DNA of 60,651 nt from Candidatus Saccharimonadales bacterium (GTDB lineage Bacteria; Patescibacteriota; Saccharimonadia; Saccharimonadales; UBA10212): assembly GCA_035480715.1 (NCBI GenBank), contig DATIHL010000011.1, positions 80,722-141,372 of the forward strand. The letters run 5' to 3'. Of this stretch, positions 3,884 through 37,527 are shown piece after piece; position 1 is the stretch's first letter, and every line of letters begins with the position of its first letter. The notes below the pieces were generated by a model. The model worked only from the letters and a program-made list of their open reading frames with translations. It did no database searches and was not told the origin of the DNA. The position numbers and the translations under genes were made by a program.

Positions 3884-4138
3884 ATGCCAAGCGAACAGTC
3901 TTCGAAATTAGAAGGTCATATTACGCCGGGTGTTCCTGTGCCAGATCTTAGCCCCGAGCAACAAATTGGACTGTCCTCGATACGGGAAATTGTAGAAAAG
4001 CGCACTCACCTTAGTCCCGACGCCCTTCTGGGATACCTAAATGTATACCATGAAAGACCCAAGTTAATTCAGCCTGGTCTGAGAGCGGCCATGCGTATTG
4101 AAAAAGACAAAAATGAAAGGGGTCATCTTGCCTCGTAA
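3884..4138 (+). CDS. Hypothetical 84-aa ORFan inserted between rpsL and rpsG
   Basis: ATG 6 nt after the rpsL stop; fills the whole gap; stop overlaps the rpsG start. Confidence 0.7.
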   Translation: MPSEQSSKLEGHITPGVPVPDLSPEQQIGLSSIREIVEKRTHLSPDALLGYLNVYHERPKLIQPGLRAAMRIEKDKNERGHLAS

Positions 4139-4607
4139 GGTTACTAAGTCTCTAGTCCGGGAAGCTGAGCCTGATCGGATTTATAACAGTCGTCAGGTTT
4201 CTAAGCTTATCAATCGTGTAATGTTGAACGGCAAAAAGCAATTGGCAGAAAAGACGGTCTACAATGCAATGCAAAAAGCAGCCGACAAGCTTAAAGTCCA
4301 AAATCCGCTCGAAATTTTTGAGCAGGCGACTAAGAACATCCAGCCGCACCTAGAAACGCGTTCTCGCCGGGTCGGCGGAGCTAACTATCAAATCCCATTC
4401 GAAGTAAGAGGTCAGCGGCAGCAGCACCTTACTACCATGTGGCTAGTAGAGGCTGCGCGTGATAAAAAAGGCATGCCAATGGAAGAGCGGCTGGCCACCG
4501 AATTAGTAGATGCCTATAACAATACCGGCTCAGCAGTTAAGAAAAAAGAAGACACGCATCGAATGGCAGAGGCTAACCGCGCTTTCGCGCACTTCGCGAG
4601 GACCTAG
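4128..4607 (+). CDS. rpsG: 30S ribosomal protein S7 (probable TTG start)
   Basis: TTG-CCT-CGT-AAG gives MPRK, preceded by AAGGGG; SRRVGGANYQIP, HRMAEANRAFAHF. Confidence 0.98.
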   Translation: MPRKVTKSLVREAEPDRIYNSRQVSKLINRVMLNGKKQLAEKTVYNAMQKAADKLKVQNPLEIFEQATKNIQPHLETRSRRVGGANYQIPFEVRGQRQQHLTTMWLVEAARDKKGMPMEERLATELVDAYNNTGSAVKKKEDTHRMAEANRAFAHFART

Positions 4608-4608
4608 T

Positions 4609-4923
4609 ATGTCGACAGGTGAATCGCCGGCGGTTGATAGGGTGCAAGTTTTCGAATCAGAAAAAGGAGCAGATTTTGATAGTCGCGACTATCGGTATGG
4701 CCAGCGTAGTGGTAAAATTAGCGCTCCTCAGTCATTAGAGAGCCGTGGTACTATCAGATATCTAGTCAAGCCCGAAGACCATGATGCATGGTTTTTAGTT
4801 GAAGTGCCAGCCGATAGCAAAGAGCCCGAAGCATTGGCTCTTCAGCAGGCCTACAGAATTAGAGCGCAGAATTATATAGACGGAGTAAGATTACCTAAAA
4901 GACCGAGGATTAATGAATGGTAG
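4609..4923 (+). CDS. Hypothetical 104-aa ORFan inserted between rpsG and fusA
   Basis: TAG-T-ATG junction after the rpsG stop (MSTGESP...); stop overlaps the fusA ATG by 7 nt. Confidence 0.7.
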
Positions 4924-7004
4924 ATAAGAAGTATAGTCTGGAGCAAATTCGGAACATCGGCATTATTGCTCATATTGACGCCGGTAAAACTACTACTACC
5001 GAAGGTATTTTGTATCGCACCGGCCTGAAACATAAGATCGGCGCTGTACATGAGGGCGAGACTACTACGGACTGGATGGCGCAGGAAAAGGAGCGCGGCA
5101 TTACTATTACTGCCGCGGCTGTAACCTCCTTTTGGAAGGACCACAAGATCAATATCATCGATACTCCGGGCCATATCGACTTTACCGTAGAAGTTGAACG
5201 CTCTTTGCGCGTGCTAGACGGCGCTGTAGTGGTATTTGACGGCAAAATGGGCGTGGAATCGCAATCAGAGACTGTTTGGCGCCAAGCAGACAAATACAAT
5301 GTGCCTCGTATCTGCTTTATAAATAAGATCAACCAGACCGGCGGCGACTTTTACAAAAGTTTGGAGAGTATCCATCACCGGCTGAATCGCCGCGCGCACC
5401 CGATCCATTTACCTATTGGCTCTGAACAATCAATAAATGGCGTCGTAGATTTGATCAACATGAAGGCCTACACATATAAAGAATTCACCGACAAGAACCT
5501 GGTCGAAGGCGAAGTCCCCGAAGATATGAAAGAAAAAGCCTTGCGCTATCGCAACCTGCTGATTGAAGCCGCTGTGGAATCGGACGATGATATTTTGGAA
5601 AAATACCTAGAAGAGGGCGAAGATAGCCTGACTGAAGACGAAATCCGATTAGCCATTCGCAAAGCCGTACTTTCCGGTCAATTTTTTGCCGTAACCGGCG
5701 GCGATGGTCGAGGCGTAATCGTCGAAAAACTGCTTGATGCAGTTAACGATTTTTTGCCCAGTCCGCTTGATAGAGGCAGCACTTGGGGCACTAATCCTAA
5801 AAATGGCGAAGAAGTTGAGCGCAAGCCCGATGCTAGCGATCCATTCGCAGCCTTGGCTTTTAAAATTTCGACGGATCCATTTGTTGGCAAACTGGCCTTC
5901 TTTAGGGTGTATTCAGGCAAGATTACTGCTGGTAGCTACATTTTGAATAGCTCGAGCGGTGAGCGTGAGCGCGTTGGCCGCATTGTGCGCTTGCACGCTG
6001 ATAAACGAGAAGACGTAGCCGAAGTAGAAGCCGGCGATATTGCGGCAATTGTCGGTCTAAAAGGTACAACAACCGGTAATACGCTCTGCGATACAAACAA
6101 CCCAATCCTGTTGGAAAGTATTACATTTCCGGAGCCGCCTGTAAGTATTGCCATAGAACCTAAAACTAAAGCTGACCAGGAAAAAATGAGCGTTGCGTTG
6201 CAGAGGCTAGCCGAAGAAGATCCCACGTTCAGGATTAAAGTCGATAACGAAACCGGGCAAACCATTATTTCTGGTATGGGTGAACTGCATCTAGAAATTA
6301 TCGTTGATAGAATGAAGCGCGAATTTGCCGTTGAAGGCAATGTTGGCCAGCCGCAAGTAGCCTATCGAGAAACTATTCGTAAAGACGGAGTCGAGGCCGA
6401 AGGTAAATATATTCGTCAAACCGGTGGCCGTGGACAGTATGGCCATTGTGTAATCCGGATTTTCCAAAATGAGGCCGGGAAAGGCTTTGAATTCATCAAT
6501 GCCATTAAAGGTGGTGCCATACCGAGTGAATTCATTCCGGCGGTCAAAGCTGGGATAGAAGAAGCATTAGCCAATGGGGTGATCGCTGGCTATCCTGTAG
6601 TTGACGTCAAGGCGGAGCTCTTTGATGGGTCTTATCACGATGTTGATTCCAGCGAGGTAGCCTTTAAGATATCTGGTTCAATGGCATTGCAGGATGCGGT
6701 CAAGAAGGCTGCGCCGGTTCTGCTGGAACCAATTATGAAGATCGTCGTTGTAACTCCTGAGGAATTTATGGGTGATGTGATAGGGGATCTTAATTCCAAA
6801 CGTGGTCGCATTGAAAGCATGGAAGACTTGCAAGCTGGTATCAAAGAAATCACGGCTTTTGTCCCACTCGGTGAGATGTTTGGCTACACCACTAATTTAC
6901 GAAGTACGACCCAGGGCCGTGCGAGTTCGTCTATGGAACTTGATCATTACGCTGACGTTCCGCCAAATGTCGCTGAAGGAATCATCGCCAAGTCAGGCAA
7001 GTAG
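4917..7004 (+). CDS. fusA: Elongation factor G
   Basis: [35 protein letters not shown]; str-operon position. Confidence 0.99.
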
Positions 7005-7100
7005 CACACCTCTATCTCTTACCATGTTTTATGGTTAGCTGGAACTAAGGTGCAGTGCTCATGCTTTAAGGTGTAAGCGGAAAGTGGTAAATTAGATTAG

Positions 7101-8633
7101 ATGGTGAGAATTGTACTAAACAGGGCTTTAGGGCAACTTATAAGAAAGCCCAAGCTAATGGTGCCCCCAACTCTAGCGTTGCGGACTGTCATATCAAAAA
7201 GCGGCAAAGGTGTGTATGCCAGCTCTGATAGATTATTCAAAGGTGCCGTTTTCGGCCGCGATTCACTAATTGTAGCTGAAGACCTCATGACTCTCCGCCC
7301 GCAGCTGGTTAAACGTATATTGTTAACTCTAGCCAGACTCCAGGGACTTAAACATAAGAGTTCGAACGAAGAAGAGCCGGGCAAAATTATTCACGAATAC
7401 CGCACAAAGATCGTCGATGATAAATTGCTGAGCGGAACACCTTTACATATTTTCGAGGACTTGAGTAAAAGATGGGGAGGCTCAGATACGACCCTAATAT
7501 ATTACGGTTCAGTTGATTCTACTCCTCAGTTTATCCGTACCTTGTGCCGATATTGCGACCTATATGGCCAAAGAATACTATGGAGCAAGATAGAGCGTAT
7601 GGATGGCCGGAGAGTTACGATGCTAGACGCTATGATCAATGCACTTGCTTGGCTAGAAGCAAAACTTGATCATTCCAAAAGTGGACTACTGGAGTACCGC
7701 GCCCATAACGATGACGGTATTAAAAACCAGGCCTGGAAAGACTCAAAAGAATTCTACGTGCATGAGAATGGCCGATTCGTTAACCACTCTAGACCAGTTG
7801 CTTCAATAGAAGTGCAAGGGCTTGCATACGACGCGTTAGTAGAGGCGGCAGAATATTTACCCGATCGTGCTGACCAACTTATAGCCAAAGCCCATAAACT
7901 TAGAGACCACACAATCGAACTGCTTTGGCAACCTGAAAAAAATTACTTTGCTCTTGGCACAGATTATGATCAGGAAGGCAGCCTTAGACTTATACAAACC
8001 ACAACTGCAAACCCGGCGTCATTACTTGATTCGGCCTTTTTTGATGATTTACCACAAGCTCAGAAAGAAAAGTACGTAACAGCTATAGTGCGCAATATCA
8101 TGGGAACAGAGTTTCTGACTGATGCTGGTATACGAAGCCGCGGACTGGGTGAAGCAAATCTGATACCTTTTTGGGATTATCACGGCAGTTATGTTAGCTG
8201 GCCTAAAGAGACATTTGATATTGCTAAAGGCCTGCGACGTCAAGGATTCCCTCAGTTAGCCAAGCAACTTGAAAACCGTCTTCTTAATGTAATCCGCAAA
8301 AGCCGCGGTTACCCCGAGTTCTTATACGTAGATCCACGAGGACGCGTTTTAGGCTCTTCTTCATCAGCTCACCGCCACACCCACGCGCTTTTGGTAAGGA
8401 GTACCAATGTGCCCGAAAGTATTCAGGCCTGGACTGTATCTGCTATCCTGGCGATATTAGCTGATCGCCGTCCAGGCATACGCTTAGGAAGAATTAAGCA
8501 AGAGCCATGGCAATCGGATATAGAGAAAGAGGTGATGATCCACATACCAAAAGTTGCAAGGTTTAAAACTTTTATTACGCTCAATGCTCGCTATCCCGAC
8601 TATCCCTATGAGTTAACAAAGGATCACTTTTAA
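7101..8633 (+). CDS. Amylo-alpha-1,6-glucosidase / glycogen-debranching-like (alpha/alpha)6 glycoside hydrolase
   Basis: FGRDSLI, EEPGKIIHEYR, YYGSVDSTP, NQAWKDS, EVQG, YHGSYVSWP, QAW motifs. Confidence 0.85.
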   Translation: MVRIVLNRALGQLIRKPKLMVPPTLALRTVISKSGKGVYASSDRLFKGAVFGRDSLIVAEDLMTLRPQLVKRILLTLARLQGLKHKSSNEEEPGKIIHEYRTKIVDDKLLSGTPLHIFEDLSKRWGGSDTTLIYYGSVDSTPQFIRTLCRYCDLYGQRILWSKIERMDGRRVTMLDAMINALAWLEAKLDHSKSGLLEYRAHNDDGIKNQAWKDSKEFYVHENGRFVNHSRPVASIEVQGLAYDALVEAAEYLPDRADQLIAKAHKLRDHTIELLWQPEKNYFALGTDYDQEGSLRLIQTTTANPASLLDSAFFDDLPQAQKEKYVTAIVRNIMGTEFLTDAGIRSRGLGEANLIPFWDYHGSYVSWPKETFDIAKGLRRQGFPQLAKQLENRLLNVIRKSRGYPEFLYVDPRGRVLGSSSSAHRHTHALLVRSTNVPESIQAWTVSAILAILADRRPGIRLGRIKQEPWQSDIEKEVMIHIPKVARFKTFITLNARYPDYPYELTKDHF

Positions 8634-8634
8634 G

Positions 8635-9834
8635 ATGCGTGTCGCTATCATCGCCGGTCCATATCTTCCGATTCCTCCACTTATGTATGGGGGGACAGAA
8701 AGAGTAATCGCCAATTTGGTAAAGGGACTTAAGGAAGCTGGTCATGAACCTGTTTTATTCGGCCCAGGTGATTCTAAGCCGGGCTGTCCGGTAATTCCGA
8801 TAGTAGACAAACACATATTCTTCCCTCGTACAGCGGCTGGATTACCGGCCTTTCAAAAAGAAATTAAAAGGATCCATAAATACACACACAAACTTCTTAA
8901 AGAAAATTTAAATGGTATCGATATTATTCATTCACACGATATTGACCTAGAGGGATTTGAGGACTTTCCCAACTTGACGACGATCCATGGTCCAATAACT
9001 TTCAAGCAACTCGAATACTACACCAAAAGAACGGGGCTCTACTTTGCTTCGATATCTAAGAATCAGCAAGAAGCCTATCCGGCGCTACAATGGGTCGGAG
9101 CAGTTTATAATGGTGATGATCCCAAGAAATTTCCAATAATAACTCGGCCAGAAAACTACGTTTGCTTTGTTAGTCGGTTTGACCGCGAAAAAAACCCTCA
9201 TCTGGCGATAGAATTAGCCATCAATTACGGAATAAAAATTAAGTTGGCTGGCAAAATTGATTTTTTGGGCGATGACTATTTTAAAACCGAAATCAAACCT
9301 TACTTTAAACATCCGCTTGTAGAATATCTGGGAGAAATCCCTCAAAAAGAAAAGATTAAATTAGTAGGTAGGGCTAAATTAAATCTCCATCCGACCGGTT
9401 TTCGGGAGCCCTTCGGCTTAACGGTGTTGGAGGCCGCTTACTGTGGAACTCCTACGATGGCTATTACGCGCGGATCAATGCCGGAGCTCATAGAAGAAGG
9501 CAGAACTGGCCTGCTGGTTGAGGATTTTGTAGAAGGCTATCATCAGATTGAAGAATGCTTCGCAATGGACCGCGAATACATCGCTAAACGAGCGCGTAAA
9601 TTATTTAACTACCAGGTTATGACTAAGCAATATCTACGTGCTTATAAAAAAATCTTACGCATCTATGAAATTCGAGAAAGAGAAGAAAGAAAAATTGAAA
9701 GAATTACAGACAAAAGTAAACGCGAACTCGAAACAATTTGGGAACGCGACGCTCAAGATAGAATTATCCCAGGCAAAAAACTGGTAGAAACTACCAAAAG
9801 ACTGACAAAACCGGTTAAATTCAGAGGAGAATAA
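8635..9834 (+). CDS. GT4 family glycosyltransferase
   Basis: PIPPLMYGGTERV N-terminus, EPFGLTVLEA motif. Confidence 0.9.
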   Translation: MRVAIIAGPYLPIPPLMYGGTERVIANLVKGLKEAGHEPVLFGPGDSKPGCPVIPIVDKHIFFPRTAAGLPAFQKEIKRIHKYTHKLLKENLNGIDIIHSHDIDLEGFEDFPNLTTIHGPITFKQLEYYTKRTGLYFASISKNQQEAYPALQWVGAVYNGDDPKKFPIITRPENYVCFVSRFDREKNPHLAIELAINYGIKIKLAGKIDFLGDDYFKTEIKPYFKHPLVEYLGEIPQKEKIKLVGRAKLNLHPTGFREPFGLTVLEAAYCGTPTMAITRGSMPELIEEGRTGLLVEDFVEGYHQIEECFAMDREYIAKRARKLFNYQVMTKQYLRAYKKILRIYEIREREERKIERITDKSKRELETIWERDAQDRIIPGKKLVETTKRLTKPVKFRGE

Positions 9835-9877
9835 TTAACACCTAAGATTGTGATGTGATAAGTTTTTACTAAAAACG

Positions 9878-9905
9878 TTGCAAAAACAATAAATAGTTCT
9901 ATAAT
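9878..9905 (+). promoter_or_regulatory. Sigma70-type promoter for the fabD-like gene
   Basis: TTGCAA(9878)-16 nt-TATAAT(9900). Confidence 0.6.
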
Positions 9906-9916
9906 ATAAATTAATT

Positions 9917-10912
9917 GTGACGGAAGTTATCCCTCGTTTTGGAGAAGATTCTCTAGCATTGATTTTTCAAGGCCAGAACGTTAATAATCCACAAATGGGT
10001 AAGCTTCTAGACAAATTTGTCGCTGCAAAAAAGGTTTACGATCTAGCGACTGAAATATTGGATTTTGATGTAAGGCGTGTCTGCTTTGGTAACCTTACAC
10101 ATCTTCAGGAAGACCCTGAATATGTTCAGCCAGCAATTGTTACTACTGAATTAGCCGAGTACCGGGCGTGGCAGGATTTTACCGATGGAGCAAAAACTGA
10201 TCTAATAACGGGGCTAAGCCTTGGAATGTACACAGCCTTAGCAGCTGCCGGATCAGCTGAGGACGCGACTGTTATAGATATAAGCTCAAAACGGGCACGT
10301 CTGGTTGCACGAAATGCAAAACGAAGACCCGGAGGTATGCTAAGTATAAAAGGCATACCACATCAAGAAGAACTCGATGATTTAATTAAAAAAACAAAAA
10401 CTGCTGTTGCGATCTGGTGGGGTGGCCACGGACTGGTTACTCTGTCCGGAACAAGACAAAGAATTAGTGAAGCGTACGGGATTGCCAGTGGATTGGAGGG
10501 TGTAACAGCGGAGATCTCCAAAGTAAAAGAGGCTGCTCACAATAGAATACAAGAGCGTATTCAAAAGCCTTTGACGGAGGTGCTCGAAAAAGCGGGCTTA
10601 CTACCGCCGGAAGTAGCGCTCCTTTCAAATGATCCGCGAAAGAATGAAACGGCATTTTTAGAAAGTGTAGAGGAGTTAATTCGACACTATTCTGATCAAA
10701 TGGTTGAGCCAGTTGATATGAACGAAGTAAATGAAGAAATCGCCTTATCCGGTATTGCAAGAGTTTTAGAGATCGGTCCTGATAGAAGTTTTGGGCTTAC
10801 AAGTCAGCTTGTTAGGAAATGTCGAGAAGAGAAAATAAGCGAAATGCGCGAGCAGATGGGCAGAGGCGCAATTAAAAGAGTTAAATTTGATTTCGATTCT
10901 CTTTCTGCCTAG
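9917..10912 (+). CDS. Divergent malonyl-CoA:ACP transacylase (FabD)-like acyltransferase
   Basis: IFQGQ...MG, QPAI, GLSLGMYTAL (catalytic Ser), GGM, AAHN (catalytic His), QMVEPV, LEIGP. Confidence 0.8.
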   Translation: MTEVIPRFGEDSLALIFQGQNVNNPQMGKLLDKFVAAKKVYDLATEILDFDVRRVCFGNLTHLQEDPEYVQPAIVTTELAEYRAWQDFTDGAKTDLITGLSLGMYTALAAAGSAEDATVIDISSKRARLVARNAKRRPGGMLSIKGIPHQEELDDLIKKTKTAVAIWWGGHGLVTLSGTRQRISEAYGIASGLEGVTAEISKVKEAAHNRIQERIQKPLTEVLEKAGLLPPEVALLSNDPRKNETAFLESVEELIRHYSDQMVEPVDMNEVNEEIALSGIARVLEIGPDRSFGLTSQLVRKCREEKISEMREQMGRGAIKRVKFDFDSLSA

Positions 10913-10921
10913 ATCTTCCTC

Positions 10922-10991
10922 TTTACAAACAGGCTAAGTTTATCTTATAATGTGGCAAGTAAAACGCATGGGGGTGTTTTGTTCCTCATGC
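10922..10991 (+). promoter_or_regulatory. tuf promoter and 5' leader hairpin
   Basis: TTTACA(10922)-18 nt-TATAAT(10946); stem GCATGGGG/CCTCATGC at 10966-10991; AGGAG SD before tuf. Confidence 0.65.
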
Positions 10992-11035
10992 TAAAAAGTA
11001 TCAATTCAATCATAAGAAGAATATAGGAGTTATAA

Positions 11036-12218: not shown

Positions 12219-12458
12219 ATGACTCAACTCGAGAGATCGCTACCTGAGATTCTAGAAGAAGCTGGAGTCATTTTGGATGGCGTAGAGGCGGGGCTTAAAG
12301 AAGTTAGCGAAGGTCTTGAACGGCAACGTGATGAGCTAGTAAGCCAACGCGATGAATTAGACGTAGCAATAGCAAATCTGCATGAAAGAGAGCATGTTCC
12401 ACTTCGTGGCACAGTAGAATTTTTAAGTCTTGGACGCCTCACGATCGGACAAATATAA
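12219..12458 (+). CDS. Hypothetical 79-aa acidic coiled-coil ORFan between tuf and rpsJ
   Basis: TAA-T-ATG after tuf; stop abuts the rpsJ ATG; QRDEL repeated at heptad spacing. Confidence 0.75.
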   Translation: MTQLERSLPEILEEAGVILDGVEAGLKEVSEGLERQRDELVSQRDELDVAIANLHEREHVPLRGTVEFLSLGRLTIGQI

Positions 12459-12791: not shown

Positions 12792-12864
12792 CCTATGGCT
12801 GCAGAGGTACCACCTACTGCTCATGTAGAAGCACTATCTTCTATTATGTAATATTTACAGCAGA

Positions 12865-12894
12865 TTGACACTTATAACCAACCTATGATAATCT
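12865..12894 (+). promoter_or_regulatory. Promoter upstream of rplC
   Basis: TTGACA(12865)-18 nt-TAATCT(12889) with TG extension. Confidence 0.6.
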
Positions 12895-15444: not shown

Positions 15445-15762
15445 ATGTTTTTCAATAGATATCCACCGCAAGAACGAGGCGACGTTTTATTTTCTCCCTT
15501 TGAGAAATCCGTTTTGAAATTTACGCCTTCAGAGTTACGCAGATTAAGAATCATAGATTTTGCAACTTTTGCCGGCGACACCGTCGCTAACTCGCTTTCG
15601 TCGTATGATTATGCCCAGCTACAAGAAGTCGGGCATGGTTTGTCAGATGATTTAGGACTATCCGGTGAAGAGGCAGGTTTATTCAAAGGTAGCTTCCTCG
15701 CACTCGACAATGTCTCAGCTACTGCAGTTAATTTAGAGCAGGAGAGGCTGCCATATGAGTAG
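15445..15762 (+). CDS. Hypothetical 105-aa acidic ORFan between rplB and rpsS
   Basis: ATG 2 nt after the rplB stop with GAGGAG upstream; stop overlaps the rpsS ATG by 8 nt. Confidence 0.75.
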
Positions 15763-16053: not shown

Positions 16054-16437
16054 ATGGGGGCACAGGCAATTAGTAAAGGCATTCGTATGAGTCCGCGCAA
16101 AGTTAGCGTGGTCGCTGCTTTAGTGCGTGGCCGCAGCGTGTCTGACGCATTGACAATTCTTGAGCACACTCCGCGCCGATCGGCTGACCCTGTTCGAAAA
16201 GCTGTACTGAGCGCTAAGGCTAACGCCGAACACAACCATAGTTTTAAACCGGACACTCTTTATATTTCGACTATATCTGTTACGTCCGGTCCGCAATTTA
16301 AGCGCTACCGCGCGGCAGCGCGTGGCCGAGCCCTAAGATTTGCCCGGAGAACCAGCCACATTAAAGTTGTTGTTGATGGCGAGAAGCGCCAATCAAAGAA
16401 GACAGCTGCCAAGCCGGCTGAGAAGGAGAACAAATAA
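16054..16437 (+). CDS. rplV: 50S ribosomal protein L22
   Basis: RMSPRKV, SAKANAEHN, ARGRA, RTSHIKV. Confidence 0.99.
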   Translation: MGAQAISKGIRMSPRKVSVVAALVRGRSVSDALTILEHTPRRSADPVRKAVLSAKANAEHNHSFKPDTLYISTISVTSGPQFKRYRAAARGRALRFARRTSHIKVVVDGEKRQSKKTAAKPAEKENK

Positions 16438-16637
16438 TGGACCCCGAATTTTATACATATGATGAAAATGGCGATGTTATTAGAAACCCAGACTACATAA
16501 CAGAGTGGGTTTATCACCCCGATGCAATTGTTCTCGGTTCAGCTGGTGTTCTTCGCGAACTGCGAGAAGATGTTGACCGTGAGATTGAAGTAGCGTTAGG
16601 AGAAAAAGATTATACGGCGTTTCAGGGGGACCATTAA
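16437..16637 (+). CDS. Hypothetical 66-aa very acidic ORFan after rplV
   Basis: TAATG overlap with the rplV stop; AAGGAG SD upstream. Confidence 0.7.
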   Translation: MDPEFYTYDENGDVIRNPDYITEWVYHPDAIVLGSAGVLRELREDVDREIEVALGEKDYTAFQGDH

Positions 16638-16665
16638 TATGCATAATTTTAGGGAAAAGAGCAGC

Positions 16666-16737
16666 CCGACAAAATGTATTCCATTTTGCCGGCGCGATGA
16701 GGAAAACCGTAGGTTGTCCTCATACGCCCGGAGGGCG
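16666..16737. repeat. Triple-hairpin palindromic (REP-like) element within a 34-aa bridging micro-ORF (16639-16743)
   Basis: Stems 16666-16692, 16697-16723 (GTA loop) and 16725-16737 (GGA loop). Confidence 0.6.
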
Positions 16738-16742
16738 AAGTA

Positions 16743-17372
16743 ATGGGTCAAAAAGTAAATCCGATCAGCATGAGGTTGCAGGTCAATAAGGATTGGCGCA
16801 GCAAATGGTTTGCTGGTAAGAAAGACTATGCCAATTATCTAAAACAGGACTTGACCGCTCGTAGGTTAATCGATCAAAAGCTTGGTACTAGAGCTGCGAT
16901 CAACAAGGTAGATATTGAGCGCTCGCCAAATTTGGTGACCGTTACTATCCAAACTGCCAAAGCCGGCGTAGTAATCGGCCGAGGCGGCGCCGGCGCGTCT
17001 GAGCTTAAAGTCGATATAGAGAAAATTTACGGCGTACCTGTCAGAGTTAACATAGAGGAAATTAAACGTGCTGAGCTTCAGGCTAAACTGGTCGCCGAGA
17101 ATATTGCCCACCAGCTGGAGCGCCGTATAGCTTTCAGGCGAGCGGTAAAACAAGCTGCGGCGGCAGCCATGCGATCGGGCGCCAAAGGAGTGCGTATCGA
17201 AGTGGCCGGTCGTTTAGGCGGCAATGAGATGAGCCGCCGCGAAAAGGAAGTTCAAGGCAGTGTGCCTCTTCATACCTTGCGAGCTGATGTGGACTATGGC
17301 AGCGCCCGTGCGCTTTACCCTGGCGCCGGAATTATAGGCATAAAAGTCTGGATTTATAGGGGAGAAAGCTAA
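16743..17372 (+). CDS. rpsC: 30S ribosomal protein S3
   Basis: [24 protein letters not shown]. Confidence 0.99.
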
Positions 17373-17790: not shown

Positions 17791-17996
17791 TGATGAAAGT
17801 GGCTGATATTCGTAAACTGACAACCGAAGAGCTGGCTAACCAAAGTACATCTTTGCGTGAAGAAATTACCGAACTTAGACGCCGACTTTATAGCGGTGAA
17901 GTCCAAAACGTGCGCTCCTTGCGGGGTAAACGCAAAGATCTAGCACGGATGCTAACGGTTTTGGGCGAGCAACTGGCTAAGGAGGACATATCGTGA
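17790..17996 (+). CDS. rpmC: 50S ribosomal protein L29
   Basis: Operon position; RKDLARMLT. Confidence 0.95.
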   Translation: MMKVADIRKLTTEELANQSTSLREEITELRRRLYSGEVQNVRSLRGKRKDLARMLTVLGEQLAKEDIS

Positions 17997-18379
17997 GTCG
18001 TATAATTACCGGTCGAGTTTCTAGTGATAAGGCCGACAAGACCATTGTTGTGCGTGTAGAAATTCGTAAAACTCATCCGATTTACCGCAAGCAATATATG
18101 CGCGACCGCAAATTTATGGCCCACGACGAGAAGAATGAGGCTAAGGTAGGCGATCTAGTGACAATCCGCGAATCCCGACCCCTGAGCGCTAACAAAAGAT
18201 TTAGTCTAGATAAGATTCTGGAACGCGCACAGGCTGGCTTCGTAGAGACAGACACCACAGCCGACGTGCCGATTGAGGAGCTCGAGAAAAAAGAGGAGCC
18301 TAAGGTTCAACCTAAGCCTAAAGAAACAATCAAGAAGGCAGAACCTGAAGAAGAAACTGAGTCAGAGGAAAAACAATGA
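17993..18379 (+). CDS. rpsQ: 30S ribosomal protein S17 with acidic C-terminal tail
   Basis: [25 protein letters not shown]. Confidence 0.98.
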
Positions 18380-30957: not shown

Positions 30958-30977
30958 TCTGATATAATTGCTCTGAA

Positions 30978-31631
30978 ATGTACGCACTTTTGCTACTGGT
31001 AATTCTCGGCTACATTGTTTACCGCCATAGCCGATACAGTGAAAACGAATTAATGCTTGTTCCGCGCCGTCTGGGTGATAGGCTAACCAAACTTTGGGAA
31101 ATTGCCCACCACGGTATGCGCGAGAATCGTTTTTTACGAGCTGAAAAGGCTCTATTGACGATCTTAAAAATCGACGAGAAAAATGCTGCAGCTTATAATC
31201 GACTCGGTATTTTGTATGCCAAACAACGGGAATATAGAGACGCAATTGATTGCTTTGAGATAGCCAGCAGTATTGAGCCCAGTGCTTCCAGCCTGCACAA
31301 TCTAGGATTAATCTATTACGAGACAGAAAATTACCAAAAAGCGGCCACCGCTTTTGAACAAGCACTTAAGCTGGAAGACGAACTAGCTGCTCGTCACATT
31401 GCCTATGCTAAGGTGCAAGAAAAACTTGGTAATGACAAGTTGATGCTTCAGGAGCTTGAAAGAGCAACTGAGCTCGAACCCAATCCAGAAACATTTAATC
31501 TTCTAGCCAGTGCCTATGAATCACGCGGTATGACCGATGAAGCTACAAAGGTTAGGCGCACAATGAGTCGTTTAACAATGCCTTCAACTCGTCCAAAACG
31601 TGTCCTTCGTCCCCGCCGGGTTGTTATTTGA
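30978..31631 (+). CDS. Membrane-anchored tetratricopeptide-repeat protein
   Basis: N-terminal hydrophobic helix; AAYNRLGILY and HNLGLIYY TPR motifs. Confidence 0.85.
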   Translation: MYALLLLVILGYIVYRHSRYSENELMLVPRRLGDRLTKLWEIAHHGMRENRFLRAEKALLTILKIDEKNAAAYNRLGILYAKQREYRDAIDCFEIASSIEPSASSLHNLGLIYYETENYQKAATAFEQALKLEDELAARHIAYAKVQEKLGNDKLMLQELERATELEPNPETFNLLASAYESRGMTDEATKVRRTMSRLTMPSTRPKRVLRPRRVVI

Positions 31632-31720
31632 CCTTTAATCTGGTGCAGAGTGGTTGCTGAAGCTAGGATGCTACTATTTAAGTGTTCTACGGCTTGTTAG
31701 TAAACTGACCCAGTTTAAAT

Positions 31721-32116
31721 CTATTTAGACTTATCCTTCATCGCCTTAAGACTTGCTTTCACGAGTTTCACAACAAGAGTCACGGGGATTTCTTTATCCG
31801 TTGGAAAGCTAACAATGGCTGTTGTTGTCGCGTAATTTGCAAGTTCCTCTTTATGATCTTGTATCACCGGAGGCCATACGTGCAGACGCACAAAGGGATT
31901 TTTATAACTAAACCATACGAACATGCCATTGTATGCGTAGTTTCCACCATAAAAATAACCCGGCATTTGAAAGTAGCTAACCGTCTCGACAGCATCGGGC
32001 GCAACTTGTCTTATTGCCATTCGGATACTTTTCAATTTATCTTGGATATCTTTAGGACACTTGGCTATATACTCATCTACGCCGCCTGGTTTAATTTCAG
32101 ATTTCTTTTTTGCCAT
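31721..32116 (-). CDS. DUF1801/YdhG-like protein
   Basis: VDEYIA...IRQVAPDAVETVSYFQMPGY...FPTDKEIP..LVVKLVK; likely start MAKKK. Confidence 0.8.
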   Translation of the reverse strand: MAKKKSEIKPGGVDEYIAKCPKDIQDKLKSIRMAIRQVAPDAVETVSYFQMPGYFYGGNYAYNGMFVWFSYKNPFVRLHVWPPVIQDHKEELANYATTTAIVSFPTDKEIPVTLVVKLVKASLKAMKDKSK

Positions 32117-32237
32117 AATATTACTCAAATATTGATTATATGATTCTAACGTACCTAATGCTCCATAAAAAACAGTTACAAAATCCATGGTGCAGGGTCA
32201 TGTACGAAGTAGGAACTCTGTGGTGGTTGAGCGCAAG

Positions 32238-32513
32238 CTACGCGGCTGAACTTTCATCGGAATAGTGCTCTTCTCTCTCTATGTTTTGCTGGTTAGCCCA
32301 CGCACCTAATTCTAGTAGTCCGCTCGCTGCTGCAAGTCCTACTGCAATTACCGTCTTTCTGGGACTGTCGACTGCTGCTTCGACGACGCCGGCCCCTGCG
32401 AGAGCCGTAACAGCTAAAACGTGCATTGAGTCTCCGGCAAAGCGACAGGCCTCAACATAGCCCGAGCCACCGTAAAGCAGGTCTAAACCTTTCCCAACAT
32501 ATCCCATATCCAA
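32238..32513 (-). CDS. Small hydrophobic hypothetical protein
   Basis: 91-aa ORF with two Ala/Gly-rich hydrophobic segments, just downstream of tRNA-Tyr. Confidence 0.5.
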   Translation of the reverse strand: MDMGYVGKGLDLLYGGSGYVEACRFAGDSMHVLAVTALAGAGVVEAAVDSPRKTVIAVGLAAASGLLELGAWANQQNIEREEHYSDESSAA

Positions 32514-32553
32514 ATTATAACAGGCATTCTAATGCTCACAGTGCTTTAGTCTG

Positions 32554-32639
32554 TGGTGCTGGGGGAGGGATTCGAACCCCCGAAGGCGAATGCCATCTGA
32601 TTTACAGTCAGACGTGTTTGACCGCTTCACTACCCCAGC
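32554..32639 (-). tRNA. tRNA-Tyr(GTA)
   Basis: Acceptor GCTGGGG/CCCCAGC, loop CTGTAAA, long variable arm, GTTCGAA, encoded CCA. Confidence 0.96.
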
Positions 32640-32653
32640 ATTAAAACTTAACT

Positions 32654-32730
32654 TGGAGCCGACGAGCGGATTCGAACCGCTGACCCGCTGTTTACAAAAC
32701 AGCCGCTCTGACCAACTGAGCTACGTCGGC
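32654..32730 (-). tRNA. tRNA-Thr(TGT)
   Basis: Acceptor GCCGACG/CGTCGGC, anticodon loop TTTGTAA, CCA end. Confidence 0.96.
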
Positions 32731-32795
32731 GACCTCTGAAAGTCTATCAAATTAACAGATAAGAATCAACGCGATATATGATATAGTGGGCTCAA

Positions 32796-33836
32796 ATGGA
32801 TGAGCAGGTAGAGAAGCTAAAAAGTTTATTAAATTCGGCTCAGAGAATTCTTATTACTTCGCATATTTCGCCAGATCCTGATGCTGTTTCGTCGATGCTC
32901 CTACTCGGTACAACTCTAAAAGAAAACTTTCCAGAAAAGGAAATATCGATGGCACTCGAGGAAGAGCCAGAAAGGCTGGAGTTCTTAGGTGGCTATCCCA
33001 AAATTGCGTTCCAGCCACTCTATAACTGTCTAGAAAATTTGCAGCCTGACTTATTGATACTAGTAGATGCTAACAATTACAAGAGGTGCTCTAGACAGCA
33101 GAGCGAAGATATCCGGACGATAATTCAATCAAAATCGATTAAAACCGCAGTTATTGATCACCACGAGCCTGACGACAAAGAGGAAACGGATATTTATATT
33201 AATCAAAAAAGTATTGCAACAGTCCAAGATATTTTTGAAGTTTGTTTTAACCACCTCGAGCTAAACAAGCCAGTTGGGTATTCAGAAACGACGATGGTGG
33301 GGCTCTACTCTGATAGCGGCGGATTTGTATATGATAATCCGCGTCATAAAGCCACATTTAAAATTGTCAACGAACTTTTAGACGCTGGAGTCAGTCTGGA
33401 AAACGTAAACCATCGTTTAAATAATTTCACAGATGATCACTTGGCTGTCCTATCAGAGCTTTTTATTAACCTCTCCCACAGCGATGACTATAATTTTACT
33501 TTTGTAAGTGATGGTTTTACTCATGAATGGGCGAAAAGCGGAAAGGATCCTAGTGCTATCCAAAGTGCGTGCGGACATTTCGTAGATCAATACTTACGCA
33601 ACATCGAAAATCGATATTGGGGTTTTGTTATTAGGCCAGACCCAATAGCTGGCCCAAAGCACTATTCTGTGTCGTTTCGCTCTACCGGTGGCAAAATGAA
33701 CGTAGCTGCAATTGCTAAAAGAGTCGGCGGCGGAGGTCACAAGCCATCAGCTGGAGCAAAATTTGAGGCTAGTGATATTGAAGACGCAATAAAAAAGGTT
33801 AAGCAGGCAATTTCTGGAGCCGTTGACGAGGATTGA
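32796..33836 (+). CDS. DHH/DHHA1 phosphoesterase (NrnA-like)
   Basis: HISPDPDA, IDHH, DSGGF, SFRS, GGGGH. Confidence 0.93.
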   Translation: MDEQVEKLKSLLNSAQRILITSHISPDPDAVSSMLLLGTTLKENFPEKEISMALEEEPERLEFLGGYPKIAFQPLYNCLENLQPDLLILVDANNYKRCSRQQSEDIRTIIQSKSIKTAVIDHHEPDDKEETDIYINQKSIATVQDIFEVCFNHLELNKPVGYSETTMVGLYSDSGGFVYDNPRHKATFKIVNELLDAGVSLENVNHRLNNFTDDHLAVLSELFINLSHSDDYNFTFVSDGFTHEWAKSGKDPSAIQSACGHFVDQYLRNIENRYWGFVIRPDPIAGPKHYSVSFRSTGGKMNVAAIAKRVGGGGHKPSAGAKFEASDIEDAIKKVKQAISGAVDED

Positions 33837-33889
33837 ACTCGTGACCCCCTCCTTACCATGGAGGTGCTCTACCACTGAGCTACAACGGC
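33815..33889 (-). tRNA. tRNA-Thr(GGT)
   Basis: Acceptor GCCGTTG/CAACGGC, anticodon loop ATGGTAA, CCA end. Confidence 0.95.
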
Positions 33890-33958
33890 ATAAACTTAAT
33901 TGTATCAAAGCGTTAGATATTGCACTCTAATCTGTTATAATACTGGCAAAGGAACATT

Positions 33959-34159
33959 ATGGCTAAGAAAAGCGACAAACGAAAGATTGTTGGATTGGTA
34001 TGCGAAGCTTGCAAGCAGCGCCACTATTACACGTCTAAAAACACTATAAATACACCTGATAAGGCTGAATTTAAAAAATATTGTCCTGTTAAGCGGGTTT
34101 ATGCAATGCAGGTTGAGACCAAGAAGAATCTTGGGCGCAATGTCGTGCCCACTCGCTAG
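33959..34159 (+). CDS. rpmG: 50S ribosomal protein L33
   Basis: LVCEAC..HYYTSKN..PDK..KKYCP; TGTTATAAT promoter upstream. Confidence 0.93.
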   Translation: MAKKSDKRKIVGLVCEACKQRHYYTSKNTINTPDKAEFKKYCPVKRVYAMQVETKKNLGRNVVPTR

Positions 34160-34208
34160 TTTGTAGGTGCGATTTATGTTATTTTTAAGGTGTTAGGTGC
34201 TTTAACGG

Positions 34209-34285
34209 AGGAGTGTAGCTCAGTTGGCTAGAGCGTCGGTCTCCAAAACCGAAGGCCGGGGGTTCAATTCCCTCCACTCCTGCCA
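34209..34285 (+). tRNA. tRNA-Trp(CCA)
   Basis: Acceptor AGGAGTG/CACTCCT, loop CTCCAAA, CCA end; canonical rpmG-trnW-secE neighbourhood. Confidence 0.96.
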
Positions 34286-34334
34286 GTGATATTTCATTTT
34301 AAGATACTCCTTCAAGGCGTTAATATTATAAGTA

Positions 34335-34994
34335 ATGAATAAAATCAGCTTAAGTAAACCGGTGCTTATATGTTTCTATGGCTACCCTGGCTCTGGTAAG
34401 AGTTATATAGCCCGTAATATGGAAGAAGTTCTACCGGCTGCCCGGGTCAGTGCCGATCGTATAAGGCACGAACTCTTTAATCAGCCGCGTTACGACGCTC
34501 AAGAGAATGCTATAGTAGCGCACTTAATGAACTATATTACCGAGGAATTTCTTCGCGCCGGGGTAAGTGTCATCTACGATACCAATGCTATGAGACTCGG
34601 ACAACGCCGCAGATTAAGGGAACTAGCCAGACATCATAAAGCCGAATATCTACTAGTTTGGCTGCAGACAGATCCGGAAAATGCCTTCATACGTACACAG
34701 AGACGCGACAGGCGCACTCAAGATGATAAATATTCTGAAGAGCAAACCAAAGCCACATTCGAGCGTCAAATGGGTGGGATGCAAAATCCCGACGGTGAAG
34801 ACTACATTGTAGTTAGCGGCAAACACTCTTTTGTTACTCAAAAAGGCGCTATTTTAAACCGATTGTATCAAATCGGTTTGGTCAGTGGGAACGTTGTGCA
34901 GAGCAATGTGACAAAACCAGGCCTAGTTAACCTTGTGCCAAATCCTCACGCCGGGCGCGTGGATTTAAACCGGCGCAATATAAATATTTACTAA
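34335..34994 (+). CDS. P-loop kinase (AAA_33 / polynucleotide kinase-like)
   Basis: GYPGSGKS, SADRIR, VIYDTN, lid R..RR. Confidence 0.85.
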   Translation: MNKISLSKPVLICFYGYPGSGKSYIARNMEEVLPAARVSADRIRHELFNQPRYDAQENAIVAHLMNYITEEFLRAGVSVIYDTNAMRLGQRRRLRELARHHKAEYLLVWLQTDPENAFIRTQRRDRRTQDDKYSEEQTKATFERQMGGMQNPDGEDYIVVSGKHSFVTQKGAILNRLYQIGLVSGNVVQSNVTKPGLVNLVPNPHAGRVDLNRRNINIY

Positions 34995-34995
34995 T

Positions 34996-35703
34996 ATGGC
35001 GCAGCGCCGGGTATCAGTACCAGAAATTGGCGAAGTGGTACTCGCTAAACGTAGAGGTAGTACCAATATGCGCCTGAGCATAAATGCGAGCGGGCAAGTT
35101 CGGGTTGGAATGCCGTATTGGACGCCCTATGAGGCGGGGCTGGTTTTTATTAAAAGCAAGAAGAGCTGGATTCAACAACAGCTTGTTACTCATGCTCCAA
35201 GCGAGCTTAGAAATGGCAGCCGGATAGGCAAAGCTCACCGATTAATTTTCTACAGGAGCAATTCAAGCAATGGTTTAGCTAATGTCCGTATTACTGCCAC
35301 GACCATAGAGATTAGAACTAGCTTGGATCCATCAGATGCGAGAGTACAGAATCGAGCACTAAAAGCTTGCGAAGAAGCCCTGAAAATGGAGGCCAAGCAG
35401 CTATTGCCTATTAGAGTTAAGGCAATTAGCTCCAAAAACCAGCTTGAATACAATGATTTAAAAATACGTAAACTGACTTCAAGATGGGGCAGCTGCTCAA
35501 CCAATAAAGTGATTAGCCTCAGCTATTTTCTAATCCAGCTTCCTTGGGAGTTGATAGACTACGTGATATTACACGAGCTAGCCCATACCAGATTTCTAAA
35601 CCATAGCCGAGATTTTTGGGAATTTATGGAACGAAACTTACCAAACGTACGAGAGCTAAGAAAGCTGATAAAGGACCATAAACCGCGCGTAGAAGTTCTC
35701 TAG
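34996..35703 (+). CDS. YgjP/DUF45 (SprT-like) zinc metallohydrolase
   Basis: SRWGSCS, DYVILHELAH, NHSRDFW. Confidence 0.9.
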   Translation: MAQRRVSVPEIGEVVLAKRRGSTNMRLSINASGQVRVGMPYWTPYEAGLVFIKSKKSWIQQQLVTHAPSELRNGSRIGKAHRLIFYRSNSSNGLANVRITATTIEIRTSLDPSDARVQNRALKACEEALKMEAKQLLPIRVKAISSKNQLEYNDLKIRKLTSRWGSCSTNKVISLSYFLIQLPWELIDYVILHELAHTRFLNHSRDFWEFMERNLPNVRELRKLIKDHKPRVEVL

Positions 35704-35719
35704 ATTCTTGGTAATGTGC

Positions 35720-35783
35720 TTGCCATATCTGTTGATGTTTGTTAAACTTGACAACAACGACCTACTCTTAAGAGTAGGTTTTA
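35720..35783 (+). promoter_or_regulatory. secE promoter and 20-bp perfect palindrome
   Basis: TTGCCA(35720)-17 nt-TAAACT(35743) with TG extension; ACCTACTCTTAAGAGTAGGT at 35760-35779. Confidence 0.6.
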
Positions 35784-35807
35784 ATATAACAAGACTCGAG
35801 AGCAGAG

Positions 35808-36215
35808 ATGGCAAATGATTCTTCTGGGCGCAGAAAGCCGCGTATAAGAAAAGCGGCTCCTACTGTACGTGAGCAGGTAGAAGCTTCTAAGCAATCGGAG
35901 AATGAACCAAAACAGCGATCAGAGGCAGCCACTGGGCTTATAAGTAAAGTTTTTTTGACCGTTGCTAAAGTCATAAAGCCGATCTTGCGCCCGCTAGCTC
36001 CAATCGGCAGATGGCTCAAGATAATCCTAAGCTGGTTATTGCCAAGGTACTTTATAAACGCTTGGCGGGAAGTGCGGCAAGTTACGTGGCCTAATAGACG
36101 GGAGACATGGCGCCTTACTGGAGCAGTCTTTGTCTTCGCGGTAGTTTTTGGCGGCTTAGTGGCTGCGGTCGATAAGGGCTTGGACGAACTATTCAAGAAA
36201 GTAATTCTTAAGTAA
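35808..36215 (+). CDS. secE: Preprotein translocase SecE
   Basis: EVRQVTWPNRRE followed by a TM helix; upstream of nusG. Confidence 0.93.
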   Translation: MANDSSGRRKPRIRKAAPTVREQVEASKQSENEPKQRSEAATGLISKVFLTVAKVIKPILRPLAPIGRWLKIILSWLLPRYFINAWREVRQVTWPNRRETWRLTGAVFVFAVVFGGLVAAVDKGLDELFKKVILK

Positions 36216-36224
36216 GGAAGCATA

Positions 36225-36767
36225 GTGGTAAAACGTTACGATTCATCTAAGCAATGGTATGCCATCCATACGTACTCAGGATACGAAGAGAAGGTGGCTG
36301 AAAGCATTCGTCAGCGGGCCGAATCGCTGGATATGGGTGACAAAATATTCCAGGTCCTAGTGCCAAAAGAGAAGATGATCGAGATCAAAAACGGCAAGCG
36401 CAAAGTGGTAGAAAAGCGAATCTTCCAGGGCTATGTATTGGTAGAGATGAAAATGAGCGAAGATGCGTGGTACATTGTGCGCAATACACCAAACGTTACA
36501 GGTTTTGTGGGTACGGGCGCAGAACCTACTCCACTTGCAGAGGACGAGATCAATAAGATCATGAAACGTATGGGCCGCGAAGAACCCAAACACAAATTTG
36601 ATTACGCAGTTGGTGAAGTGGTCAATATCGTTGACGGGCCATTTAAAGGTTTTGATGGCGCTATAAATGAAATCGATGCTCAAAAAGGCAAGCTGAAAGT
36701 GTTAGTTAATATGTTCGGTCGCGAAACTCCAGTAGAGCTTGATGGACTTCAGGTTAAGAGAGTCTAA
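36225..36767 (+). CDS. nusG: Transcription factor NusG
   Basis: WYAIHTYSGYE, GYVLVEM, DGPF, MFGRETPVEL. Confidence 0.99.
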   Translation: MVKRYDSSKQWYAIHTYSGYEEKVAESIRQRAESLDMGDKIFQVLVPKEKMIEIKNGKRKVVEKRIFQGYVLVEMKMSEDAWYIVRNTPNVTGFVGTGAEPTPLAEDEINKIMKRMGREEPKHKFDYAVGEVVNIVDGPFKGFDGAINEIDAQKGKLKVLVNMFGRETPVELDGLQVKRV

Positions 36768-36769
36768 AT

Positions 36770-37198
36770 ATGGCTAAAGAAGTTAGAGGATCGTTGAAGA
36801 TGAAAGTCCGCGGCGGCCAAGCCAGCGCCGCGCCACCTGTTGGATCAACGCTCGGCCAATACGGTGTAAATATGATGGATTTTATAAACCCATTTAATGA
36901 ACAGACCAAAGACCGCATGGGCCAGATGCTTACTGTTCACATAACTATTTACGACGATCGCACGATGGACTGGCGAGTTGTGGGAACACCTACGGACGAG
37001 TTAATTCTAGCTGCCCTTAAGGTGGATAAAGGTTCTGGTGAACCAAATAAAGAGAAGCTGGAAAAGAAATTATCAAAATCCCAGCTTAAAGAGATTGCCG
37101 AATTCAAAGCGGTTGATATGAACACAGACGATGTCGAGGCAATTATGAAAATGGTTGCAGGTACCGCCCGTAGTATGGGCGTAGAAGTAGAGGAGTAA
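36770..37198 (+). CDS. rplK: 50S ribosomal protein L11
   Basis: APPVGSTLGQ, GTARSMGV. Confidence 0.98.
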   Translation: MAKEVRGSLKMKVRGGQASAAPPVGSTLGQYGVNMMDFINPFNEQTKDRMGQMLTVHITIYDDRTMDWRVVGTPTDELILAALKVDKGSGEPNKEKLEKKLSKSQLKEIAEFKAVDMNTDDVEAIMKMVAGTARSMGVEVEE

Positions 37199-37200
37199 AT

Positions 37201-37527
37201 ATGACAACCAATGGTTTTGAAGCAGATTTAACGATTGATCCGGCACTAGATAAGGCTATGAGAGCTATAGACATTGCGCCTGGCTTGGATAAATATATTC
37301 CACCTCATCTACTACCTGGTTGTCTAGGTATATGTGCAACTAGCGGCGAGCTAACAATTGTAGAGGTTGATAGAGATGGTCGTTCAAATCTCTTGGGCAT
37401 TGTCGAAGGTGGGCCTAGAAATATGGGTCTGATGTTGGTGCATAGAGTTGGTAGAGCGCCTGATGCTGAGCCACAGTATAAGCACGATGAGACACTACCA
37501 TATGACGGTAATATCTCATTCCCTTAA
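37201..37527 (+). CDS. Hypothetical 108-aa ORFan between rplK and rplA
   Basis: ATG 2 nt after the rplK stop, with GAGGAG SD overlapping the rplK end. Confidence 0.7.
   Translation: MTTNGFEADLTIDPALDKAMRAIDIAPGLDKYIPPHLLPGCLGICATSGELTIVEVDRDGRSNLLGIVEGGPRNMGLMLVHRVGRAPDAEPQYKHDETLPYDGNISFP

Follow-up and report, generated by a model that had tools for sequence, protein, structure and literature searches.

The str, S10 and L11 operons of bacteria have a textbook gene order that resists insertion. Small dispersed repeats are known in several forms, including enterobacterial repetitive intergenic consensus (ERIC), repetitive extragenic palindromic (REP) and miniature inverted-repeat transposable element (MITE) sequences, and the palindromic elements of Rickettsia become translated, while eukaryotes have dedicated ribosomal-protein chaperones, Yar1, Tsr2, Sqt1 and others. 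Here, we describe small open reading frames (ORFs) set between the genes of these operons in a 60,651-nucleotide (nt) stretch of a soil Candidatus Saccharimonadales bacterium (assembly GCA_035480715.1, contig DATIHL010000011.1, positions 80,722 to 141,372 of the forward strand; hereafter, the window). They occupy the rpsL/rpsG, rpsG/fusA, tuf/rpsJ, rplB/rpsS, rplV/rpsC and rplK/rplA junctions, and at rplV/rpsC a 66-amino-acid (aa) ORF hands over to a 34-aa ORF, which in turn reaches rpsC (Table 1). We favor, with a probability of roughly 0.55, the reading that such coupled stop/start junctions are exchangeable, high-expression slots for small accessory genes and not sites of new ribosome parts.

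In both E. coli and Haloferax, translational coupling is all but lost across gaps of ~20 nt (PMC10666635), and new genes are reported to integrate only rarely within operons (PMC5635113). No description of the present inserts was found in the literature searched, most subscription papers being outside its reach, and the phenomenon is real, lineage-wide and apparently undescribed in print. New here are null models for open frames and for charge, the division of the rplV/rpsC insert into a gene and a repeat, the whole-genome fidelity of one family to its junction together with a folded model for it, the association of such ORFs with housekeeping genes across the genome, and a difference from other Patescibacteria.

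Junction Filling and Turnover Among Relatives

The comparison set was drawn from the window and 118 fetched loci, of which 104 were left once 15 duplicates had been removed, and a junction was scored as filled where the gap between genes was at least 100 nt; a few gaps are inflated by truncated gene matches. Filling was frequent at rpsG/fusA (37 of 44 loci) and tuf/rpsJ (68 of 82), less so at rpsL/rpsG (12 of 35), rplB/rpsS (30 of 103) and rplV/rpsC (11 of 101), and absent at rplN/rplX (0 of 91) and rpsE/rplO (0 of 85). A preliminary description of this DNA, made from its letters alone, had taken the junctions concerned to be normally gene-to-gene, which is wrong within Saccharimonadia for rpsG/fusA and tuf/rpsJ. 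Among 30 rplK loci, which include the source genome (G000), nusG/rplK was filled in 18 of 30, rplK/rplA in 15 of 29 and secE/nusG in 0 of 25, and grpE/dnaK was filled in 28 of 30 loci, again including G000. The rplB/rpsS junction was filled in 11 of 47 metagenome loci and in none of 13 loci from distant bacteria, where the same procedure retrieved, in 8 of 8 cases, a conserved gene that separates rpsE from rplO and encodes a basic protein, which we take to be L30. A phylum-wide set of 29 loci (one from the same order) contained 15 inserts of at least 60 nt at these junctions; none was an acidic coupled gene, and one of the 15, as judged by eye, was spanned from stop to start. The habit is Saccharimonadia-wide, and the window is one case of it, albeit an extreme one: all five of its slots are filled, the highest count among the 33 loci in which all five could be scored.

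These junctions are core-gene-flanked intervals with high turnover of gene content. Congeners lack the small ORFs of the window, and near-sister genomes differ in their filling (L128 and L135, L107 and L118, L133 and L063). The 140 insert proteins formed 105 clusters, and 32 of 40 strong similarity edges fell within one junction, the sole cross-junction edge above z 10 being a common repeat tail. Same-junction pairs from hosts at a distance below 0.3 were homologous in 0 of 12 cases, and strong homologs were found at distances of 0.33–0.65. The presence of an insert at rplB/rpsS involved 20 changes for 25 carriers across 102 tips (shuffled mean, 22.5), whereas presence at tuf/rpsJ tracks the tree (10 changes versus 17.7 when shuffled).

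Conserved small genes of other kinds were also observed. In 34 relatives (e.g., L036, L045, and L080), rpsJ/rplC holds a conserved hydrophobic protein of ~90 aa that the window lacks at the corresponding junction. A recurrent, near-neutral protein of ~82–116 aa, apparently one family by eye, lies 5' of rpsJ at tuf/rpsJ in L046, L060, L073, L088, L105, L124, and L269. The dnaK/dnaJ junction in 9 of 30 loci (L198–L201, L204, L207, L209, L212, and L215) carries a conserved basic peptide of ~50 aa with one hydrophobic stretch.

Open Frames, Coupling and the Small Acidic Class

Of 154 inserts of 70–450 nt at tight junctions in relatives, 142 were spanned by a single ORF that connects the stop of the preceding gene to the start of the following one, compared to 29.2 after shuffling of their interiors; of the 12 unspanned inserts, three are chains of two ORFs and another six, all at rplD/rplW, are probably start mis-calls. 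When filled and empty junctions are paired, the ATG of the insert occupies the position of the downstream gene's ATG, and the junction of rplB with its ORF in G000 is identical, up to the ATG, to the empty rplB/rpsS junction of the congener L144. Short inserts of ~75–190 nt are of a kind that spells out a repeat and are separate from the 66–108-aa ORFs. The ATG of the downstream gene has a Shine-Dalgarno (SD) sequence of at least 4 nt on its 5' side for 72 of 101 acidic inserts, for 30 of 32 hairpin-repeat inserts and for 94 of the 100 remaining short ones. In the window, coupling geometry (an overlap or a gap of less than ~20 nt) was found at all six 5' junctions and at five of six 3' junctions. 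The junction anatomy given in the preliminary description was recovered: all ORFs lie on the sense strand at the positions that it assigned, the start offsets of -1 to +6 nt agree with those measured (Table 1), and the 3' contacts of 11, 7, 0, 8, and 1 nt are present, the last belonging to the second (34-aa) ORF of its junction. Its further claim that coupling is preserved is supported by the excess of open frames and by the shared position of the ATG. We infer that loss of coupling acts as a filter on inserts.

The small acidic class was defined as 116 coupled ORFs of 45–150 aa, with basic repeat-derived ORFs of L078, L088, and L050 and one mis-called rpsD piece excluded beforehand; one heptamer ORF was kept among the 116 and omitted from the 115 that were scanned against family libraries. 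Net charge was negative in 109 of 116, compared to 6% of nucleotide shuffles and 0–8% of alternative reading frames; among 367 long genes of G000, the share was 46%. A transmembrane-like window was detected in 0 of 116. At E 0.001, no match to any of the 115 was obtained in Pfam, NCBIfam, PADLOC or PHROGs, which speaks against known families routinely found at these positions. Four of the six window ORFs are clearly acidic by both net charge and pI, as had been said of most of them. For 106 of 116, GC content at third codon positions (GC3) was below that of local ribosomal-protein genes; it averages 0.36 over the six ORFs of the window, less than both the median (0.46) and the 5th percentile (0.37) of the genome. 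The inserts do not share the profile of ribosomal proteins, which are lineage-wide, high in identity and usually basic.

In 15 protein-homologous pairs, the proportion of nonsynonymous differences (pN) was 0.29–0.50 and that of synonymous differences (pS) was 0.64–0.95, the latter saturated like the flanks, and a sixteenth pair, joined by repeat, gave a pN of 0.25 and a pS of 0.37. With the caution that pairs were chosen by protein score, pN in the homologous pairs is well under pS and does not resemble a dN/dS ratio near 1. The class itself fills grpE/dnaK in 22 of 30 loci, nusG/rplK in 12 of 30 and rplK/rplA in 14 of 29. A crude call of 718 ORFs in G000 contains 16 with a small acidic ORF coupled to their 3' end; seven of these small ORFs are Pfam families and nine are not; the nine Pfam-negative ORFs follow housekeeping genes, namely tuf, rplB, rplV, rplK, a YebC gene, a class II tRNA synthetase, grpE, dnaK and phosphoglucose isomerase.

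Coupled Junctions as Probable Exchangeable Slots

The slot reading is favored because the corresponding junctions of relatives are either empty or occupied by different small genes, most of them acidic. The newcomer gene begins at the start position of the downstream gene and supplies a replacement SD in its last codons, with ribosomes likely to keep relaying into the essential downstream gene and the newcomer expected to gain the expression level of the operon. An insert left untranslated from stop to start would be expected to starve the downstream gene, which would constitute the filter. Slots are likely swapped by natural transformation, through putative double recombination in the conserved flanking core genes. 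In this regard, comEC and dprA both scored over the cut-off in G000. Competence has been shown in other Saccharibacteria, which integrate linear DNA with flanks down to 221 bp (PMC10633639), and the predicted transferred genes in Patescibacteria include tuf, rpsL and other ribosomal-protein genes (PMC12455944). The encoded proteins may be abundant, soluble accessory factors that act by mass action. Binding or serving as decoys in encounters with the host, phages or competitors would be their most plausible role, and their acidity might keep them off RNA and ribosomes.

Several observations weigh against this reading. For recombination in the flanks, the mean residual z was 0.58, with 9 of 13 non-independent pairs positive and synonymous sites saturated. 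A host or phage role finds no echo in PADLOC or PHROGs (0 of 115). Since five of the six window ORFs have no homolog, constraint on them is drawn from the class, and since pairs were selected at a protein score of at least 70, their comparison is biased toward pN < pS. Coupling alone does not explain the preference of acidic inserts for rplB/rpsS (25 of 103) over the remaining S10/spc junctions (0–4). Inserts of different clusters at rplB/rpsS show a slight excess of similarity (0.31, versus 0.17 with shuffled labels; 0 of 200 shuffles). Finally, two rplB/rpsS families both model as four-helix bundles with a long helix plus three, a likeness of pattern only, which would suit an ancient, junction-bound superfamily equally well.

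The rplB/rpsS Family and Possible Junction-Specific Partners

The ORF at rplB/rpsS has homologs at 72%, 43% and lower identity, nine sequences in all, with a motif conserved across the nine. All five located members, L086 included, lie at rplB/rpsS, and a profile search of 401 whole genomes matched four (G000 included), all at rplB/rpsS in three GTDB families and nowhere else. From these sequences, the family appears to be a real protein under protein-level constraint. An AlphaFold model of the window member is a helical bundle with a predicted local distance difference test (pLDDT) score of 84.7 and a predicted template-modeling (pTM) score of 0.75, with helices at residues 18–26, 29–50, 56–69, 74–86, and 88–98, the last partly of low confidence; a second rplB/rpsS family modeled with four helices at pLDDT 90.6 and pTM 0.79. 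Structure comparison gave a best VIA Z of 6.9 (root-mean-square deviation of 3.6, 88 aligned) with none at or above 8 among 48161, and no distinctive PDB match. The best E in a PDB sequence search was 0.13, ESM Atlas returned no match of at least 0.9 for 15445–15759, and no relative of the family appeared in the metagenome or viral scans. A single superfamily for all rplB/rpsS inserts was considered and is unsupported by hmmsearch or hhalign (four families, best E 0.07).

The fidelity of this family to one junction across three GTDB families is what would be expected if inserts were junction-specific partners, that is, acidic escorts or assembly factors acting 1:1 with basic ribosomal proteins (L2 or S19 in the case of rplB/rpsS) that diverge fast and are often lost. 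The shared long-helix-plus-three-helices pattern, the weak within-junction similarity and the strongly basic neighbors (L2 +34, L22 +19, S12 +24) are likewise consistent with such partners. However, 73 of 103 rplB/rpsS junctions are empty, congeners included, whereas a dedicated chaperone should be present wherever its client is made, and the family occurs in 4 of 401 genomes. Moreover, profile–profile comparison joins none of the four rplB/rpsS families, and the same class follows EF-Tu, GrpE and DnaK, which are acidic or neutral. We therefore regard junction-specific partners as unlikely. The preliminary description had offered lineage-specific, translation-associated proteins as one explanation, and this is weakened by the congeners without ORFs, the differing sister genomes and the filling of grpE/dnaK by the class, although the junction-faithful rplB/rpsS family is still compatible with it. 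A bolder version, which we consider distinctly improbable, would make the rplB/rpsS inserts an ancient, extremely fast-evolving four-helix superfamily escorting nascent S19 or L2, with analogous client-specific acidic partners at the other hot junctions. If true, it would imply a hidden, interchangeable layer of co-translational helpers in the ribosomal and chaperone operons of Saccharimonadia.

Singleton ORFs and Possible Relay Spacers

The other five ORFs had no homolog in searches of 280 genomes each, and all formed single-member clusters. The rplK/rplA and rpsG/fusA ORFs had no relative among 5.8 billion proteins, and ESM Atlas gave no usable match for 4609–4920. A match of the rpsG/fusA ORF at E 0.005 within a 501-aa frame was rejected, ~1.4 such matches being expected over 280 genomes. 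The six ORFs are mutually dissimilar, as had been claimed, with no paralogy among them or within G000; the sole candidate, an identical stretch of nine residues in the 66-aa ORF (16458–16484) and an uncharacterized 192-aa protein 5' of ftsA (G000:C15:149376–149954; tblastn E 0.059), was treated as chance.

Five singletons among six ORFs could be expected of function-free relay spacers or newborn genes, open only to pass ribosomes and drifting to a harmless acidic composition. This description holds for the 34-aa frame and for the heptamer inserts of relatives, where the peptides just spell the repeat, and acidic ORFs of L062 and L132 read through into repeat. Yet the rplB/rpsS family retains 43–72% identity with saturated synonymous sites and a motif over nine sequences, the models of the two rplB/rpsS families reach pLDDT 85 and 91, and a relay needs just 25–50 codons, to judge from the repeat inserts. 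As an account of the acidic ORFs in general, spacers are thus improbable.

The Hairpin Repeat and Heptamer Inserts

The ORF at 16639–16743 proved to be a dispersed DNA repeat, and the label "unrecognizable" given to it at first does not hold. Its DNA has 12 copies in G000 and folds at -38 kcal/mol (z -3.2). In the fetched loci the repeat has 34 matches, 32 in the sense orientation, at 12 junction types, nearly all framed by an ATG and a stop; the repeat models were built partly from these same copies. The upstream gene end is duplicated in 7 of 32 copies (null, 5–12%). The element is multi-copy, short, structured and at unrelated sites, as are MITE- and REP-type repeats, and the 34-aa ORF is its reading frame, which acts as a relay and is not a gene for a protein. 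It survived, in our explanation, because it is open in frame. Rfam had no match for any insert, and the repeat pattern was absent from the viral contigs and plasmids scanned. The other short inserts are AT-rich heptamer repeats resembling those around a PF05635 gene of G000.

Further features of these repeats were observed. The PF05635 gene (L149; G000:C5, about 9000–9460) encodes a four-helix bundle and lies between inverted heptamer repeats and, by eye, ahead of an infC-like gene; short repeat-only inserts in relatives resemble an empty shell of this cassette. In L084, L069, L078, L061, L062, L088, L247, and L271, repeat-derived open mini-frames occur, in some at up to 12–13 of 16 tight S10/spc junctions. 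The hairpin repeat apparently forms an in-frame fusion to rplE at rplX/rplE of L062 and the C-terminus of the acidic ORF at rplV/rpsC of L062 and rplB/rpsS of L132. Summed contig depth over 16650–16740 was ~1090 in a soil DNA run (X1), compared to ~25 on unique DNA, indicating that many further contigs from that soil contain the repeat.

The spread of the hairpin repeat over so many junction types, nearly always in the sense orientation and in part with duplicated gene ends, raises the prospect of one selfish insertion system that targets the stop codons of highly expressed operons, with the ORFs as its cargo. The heptamer-flanked PF05635 gene fits such a system, as do four loci in which a repeat shares its junction with an acidic ORF (G000, L062, L132, and L069, the last with a heptamer insert). 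Nevertheless, acidic ORFs have no common ends and no shared scar, with junction duplication in 3 of 101 (null, 1.7–2.6%), and seldom change junction; repeat inserts are spread evenly whereas acidic ORFs are concentrated at few junctions; and no Y1 transposase was found in G000, which is 92% complete. Target-site duplication for the acidic ORFs was accordingly rejected, and a single selfish system appears quite improbable. Of the insertion process at stop codons that the preliminary description envisaged, the arrival of a mobile sequence at such junctions is established for the 34-aa repeat and the heptamer inserts of relatives and not for the 66–108-aa ORFs.

Soundness of the Assembly

G000 is a metagenome assembly of 704 kb in 18 contigs. 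Five str/S10 junction regions are spanned without a mismatch by contigs of X1–X4, four runs of soil DNA that belong to a single study; since X1 may be the source, this bridging verifies the assembly and says nothing of distribution. Although the genome is a fragmented metagenome assembly, an artefact of assembly or ORF calling can be dismissed given the bridging contigs, the homolog at the identical junction in other genomes and the open-frame and charge tests, and the observation is genuine.

Features of the Window

The rpsG start at TTG 4128 agrees with the MPRKVTKS start in relatives. At the site of the 18-aa micro-ORF 3' of rpsJ, 13 of 86 loci carry a coupled ORF of 56–158 aa, so that the micro-ORF is possibly a relic of a longer insert. 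The leader 5' of rplA presumably resembles an L1-binding site, for which it is a candidate. No convincing promoter or terminator was detected within the window ORFs, the yield of the scan being no higher than in shuffles.

Table 1. Small ORFs and associated features at ribosomal operon junctions of the window (start, offset in nt from the upstream stop).
Feature	Position	Strand	5' end	3' end	Net charge	pI	Remarks
84-aa ORF, rpsL/rpsG	3884..4138	+	start +6	11-nt overlap with rpsG TTG (4128)	0	6.9	singleton
104-aa ORF, rpsG/fusA	4609..4923	+	start +1	7-nt overlap with fusA, supplies GAGG	-1	5.8	singleton
79-aa acidic ORF, tuf/rpsJ	12219..12458	+	start +1 (tuf-coupled)	abuts rpsJ (0 nt)	-9	4.5	singleton
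18-aa micro-ORF 3' of rpsJ	12795..12851	+	start +3				directly 5' of promoter-like site for rplC (12865–12892)
105-aa acidic protein, rplB/rpsS	15445..15762	+	start +2	8-nt overlap with rpsS, own AGGAG	-7	4.6	nine-sequence family
66-aa strongly acidic ORF, rplV/rpsC	16437..16637	+	TAATG coupling to rplV (start -1)		-12	4.1	singleton
34-aa basic frame, rplV/rpsC	16639..16743	+		GGAG hairpin; TAATG, 1-nt overlap with rpsC	+6		over ~90-nt two-hairpin repeat, core about 16650–16735
108-aa acidic ORF, rplK/rplA	37201..37527	+	start +2 (rplK-coupled)	uncoupled from rplA	-7	4.7	singleton
62-nt leader 5' of rplA	37528..37589	+					retained 3' of insert; most relatives have leader, insert or not

Elsewhere in the window, the interval between fusA and tuf (7101–10912) encodes an MGH1-like glycoside hydrolase, a GT4 glycosyltransferase and a FabD-like acyltransferase, the first two of which are kept in congeners. 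Long charged terminal extensions are present in rpsQ (17993–18379, 128 aa), rplA (37590–38528, 312 aa) and rplL (42042–42566, 174 aa), and an L10 leader (RF00557) was identified over its gathering score at 41338–41474.

Implications and Comparison With Described Systems

In Saccharimonadia, these operons hold some of the most variable genes of the genome. The inserts show a route by which new genes can enter an essential operon, by borrowing its start site and repaying it with a new SD, and they suggest that this host-dependent lineage harbors a large reservoir of small proteins, as yet unstudied and probably abundant. In other Patescibacteria, the repeat inserts at these junctions are mostly not open frames, which suggests that lineages differ in their dependence on coupling. 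Saccharibacteria are now transformable, which makes both the relay and the function of the proteins directly testable.

Like the Yar1, Tsr2 and Sqt1 chaperones, which are small or acidic and tied to one basic ribosomal protein, the inserts are small, mostly acidic products; those chaperones are conserved in their lineages, whereas the inserts are absent from most relatives and any binding to a ribosomal protein is hypothetical. The 16639–16743 element resembles ERIC, REP and MITE sequences and the Rickettsia palindromic elements as a multi-copy hairpin repeat of ~90 nt beside a stop codon. Unlike them, it has no Rfam match and no demonstrated terminal inverted repeat or cognate transposase, and it brings its own ATG, SD and stop to junctions. 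Cassettes of PF05635, the 23S rRNA intervening-sequence protein (IVP), share inverted heptamer repeats with the short inserts of relatives, as well as placement at gene junctions, but none of the six window ORFs is PF05635 or bears such repeats.

Both ends of the inserts show the -4/-1 overlaps or few-base gaps of termination–reinitiation coupling; such coupling usually joins subunits of one complex (Huber et al., 2023; PMC10666635), whereas here it threads unrelated, replaceable genes. The closest likeness in gene turnover is to hotspots free of mobile genetic elements (MGE), which show variable content between fixed core genes without adjoining mobile-element genes in transformable lineages (Oliveira et al., 2017; PMC5635113). 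Turnover here is that between genera. Compared to those hotspots, the slots described here interrupt essential operons whose genes are coupled, each contains a single gene or a few genes of 60–150 aa, and they combine stop/start phasing at both ends with selection for acidic products.

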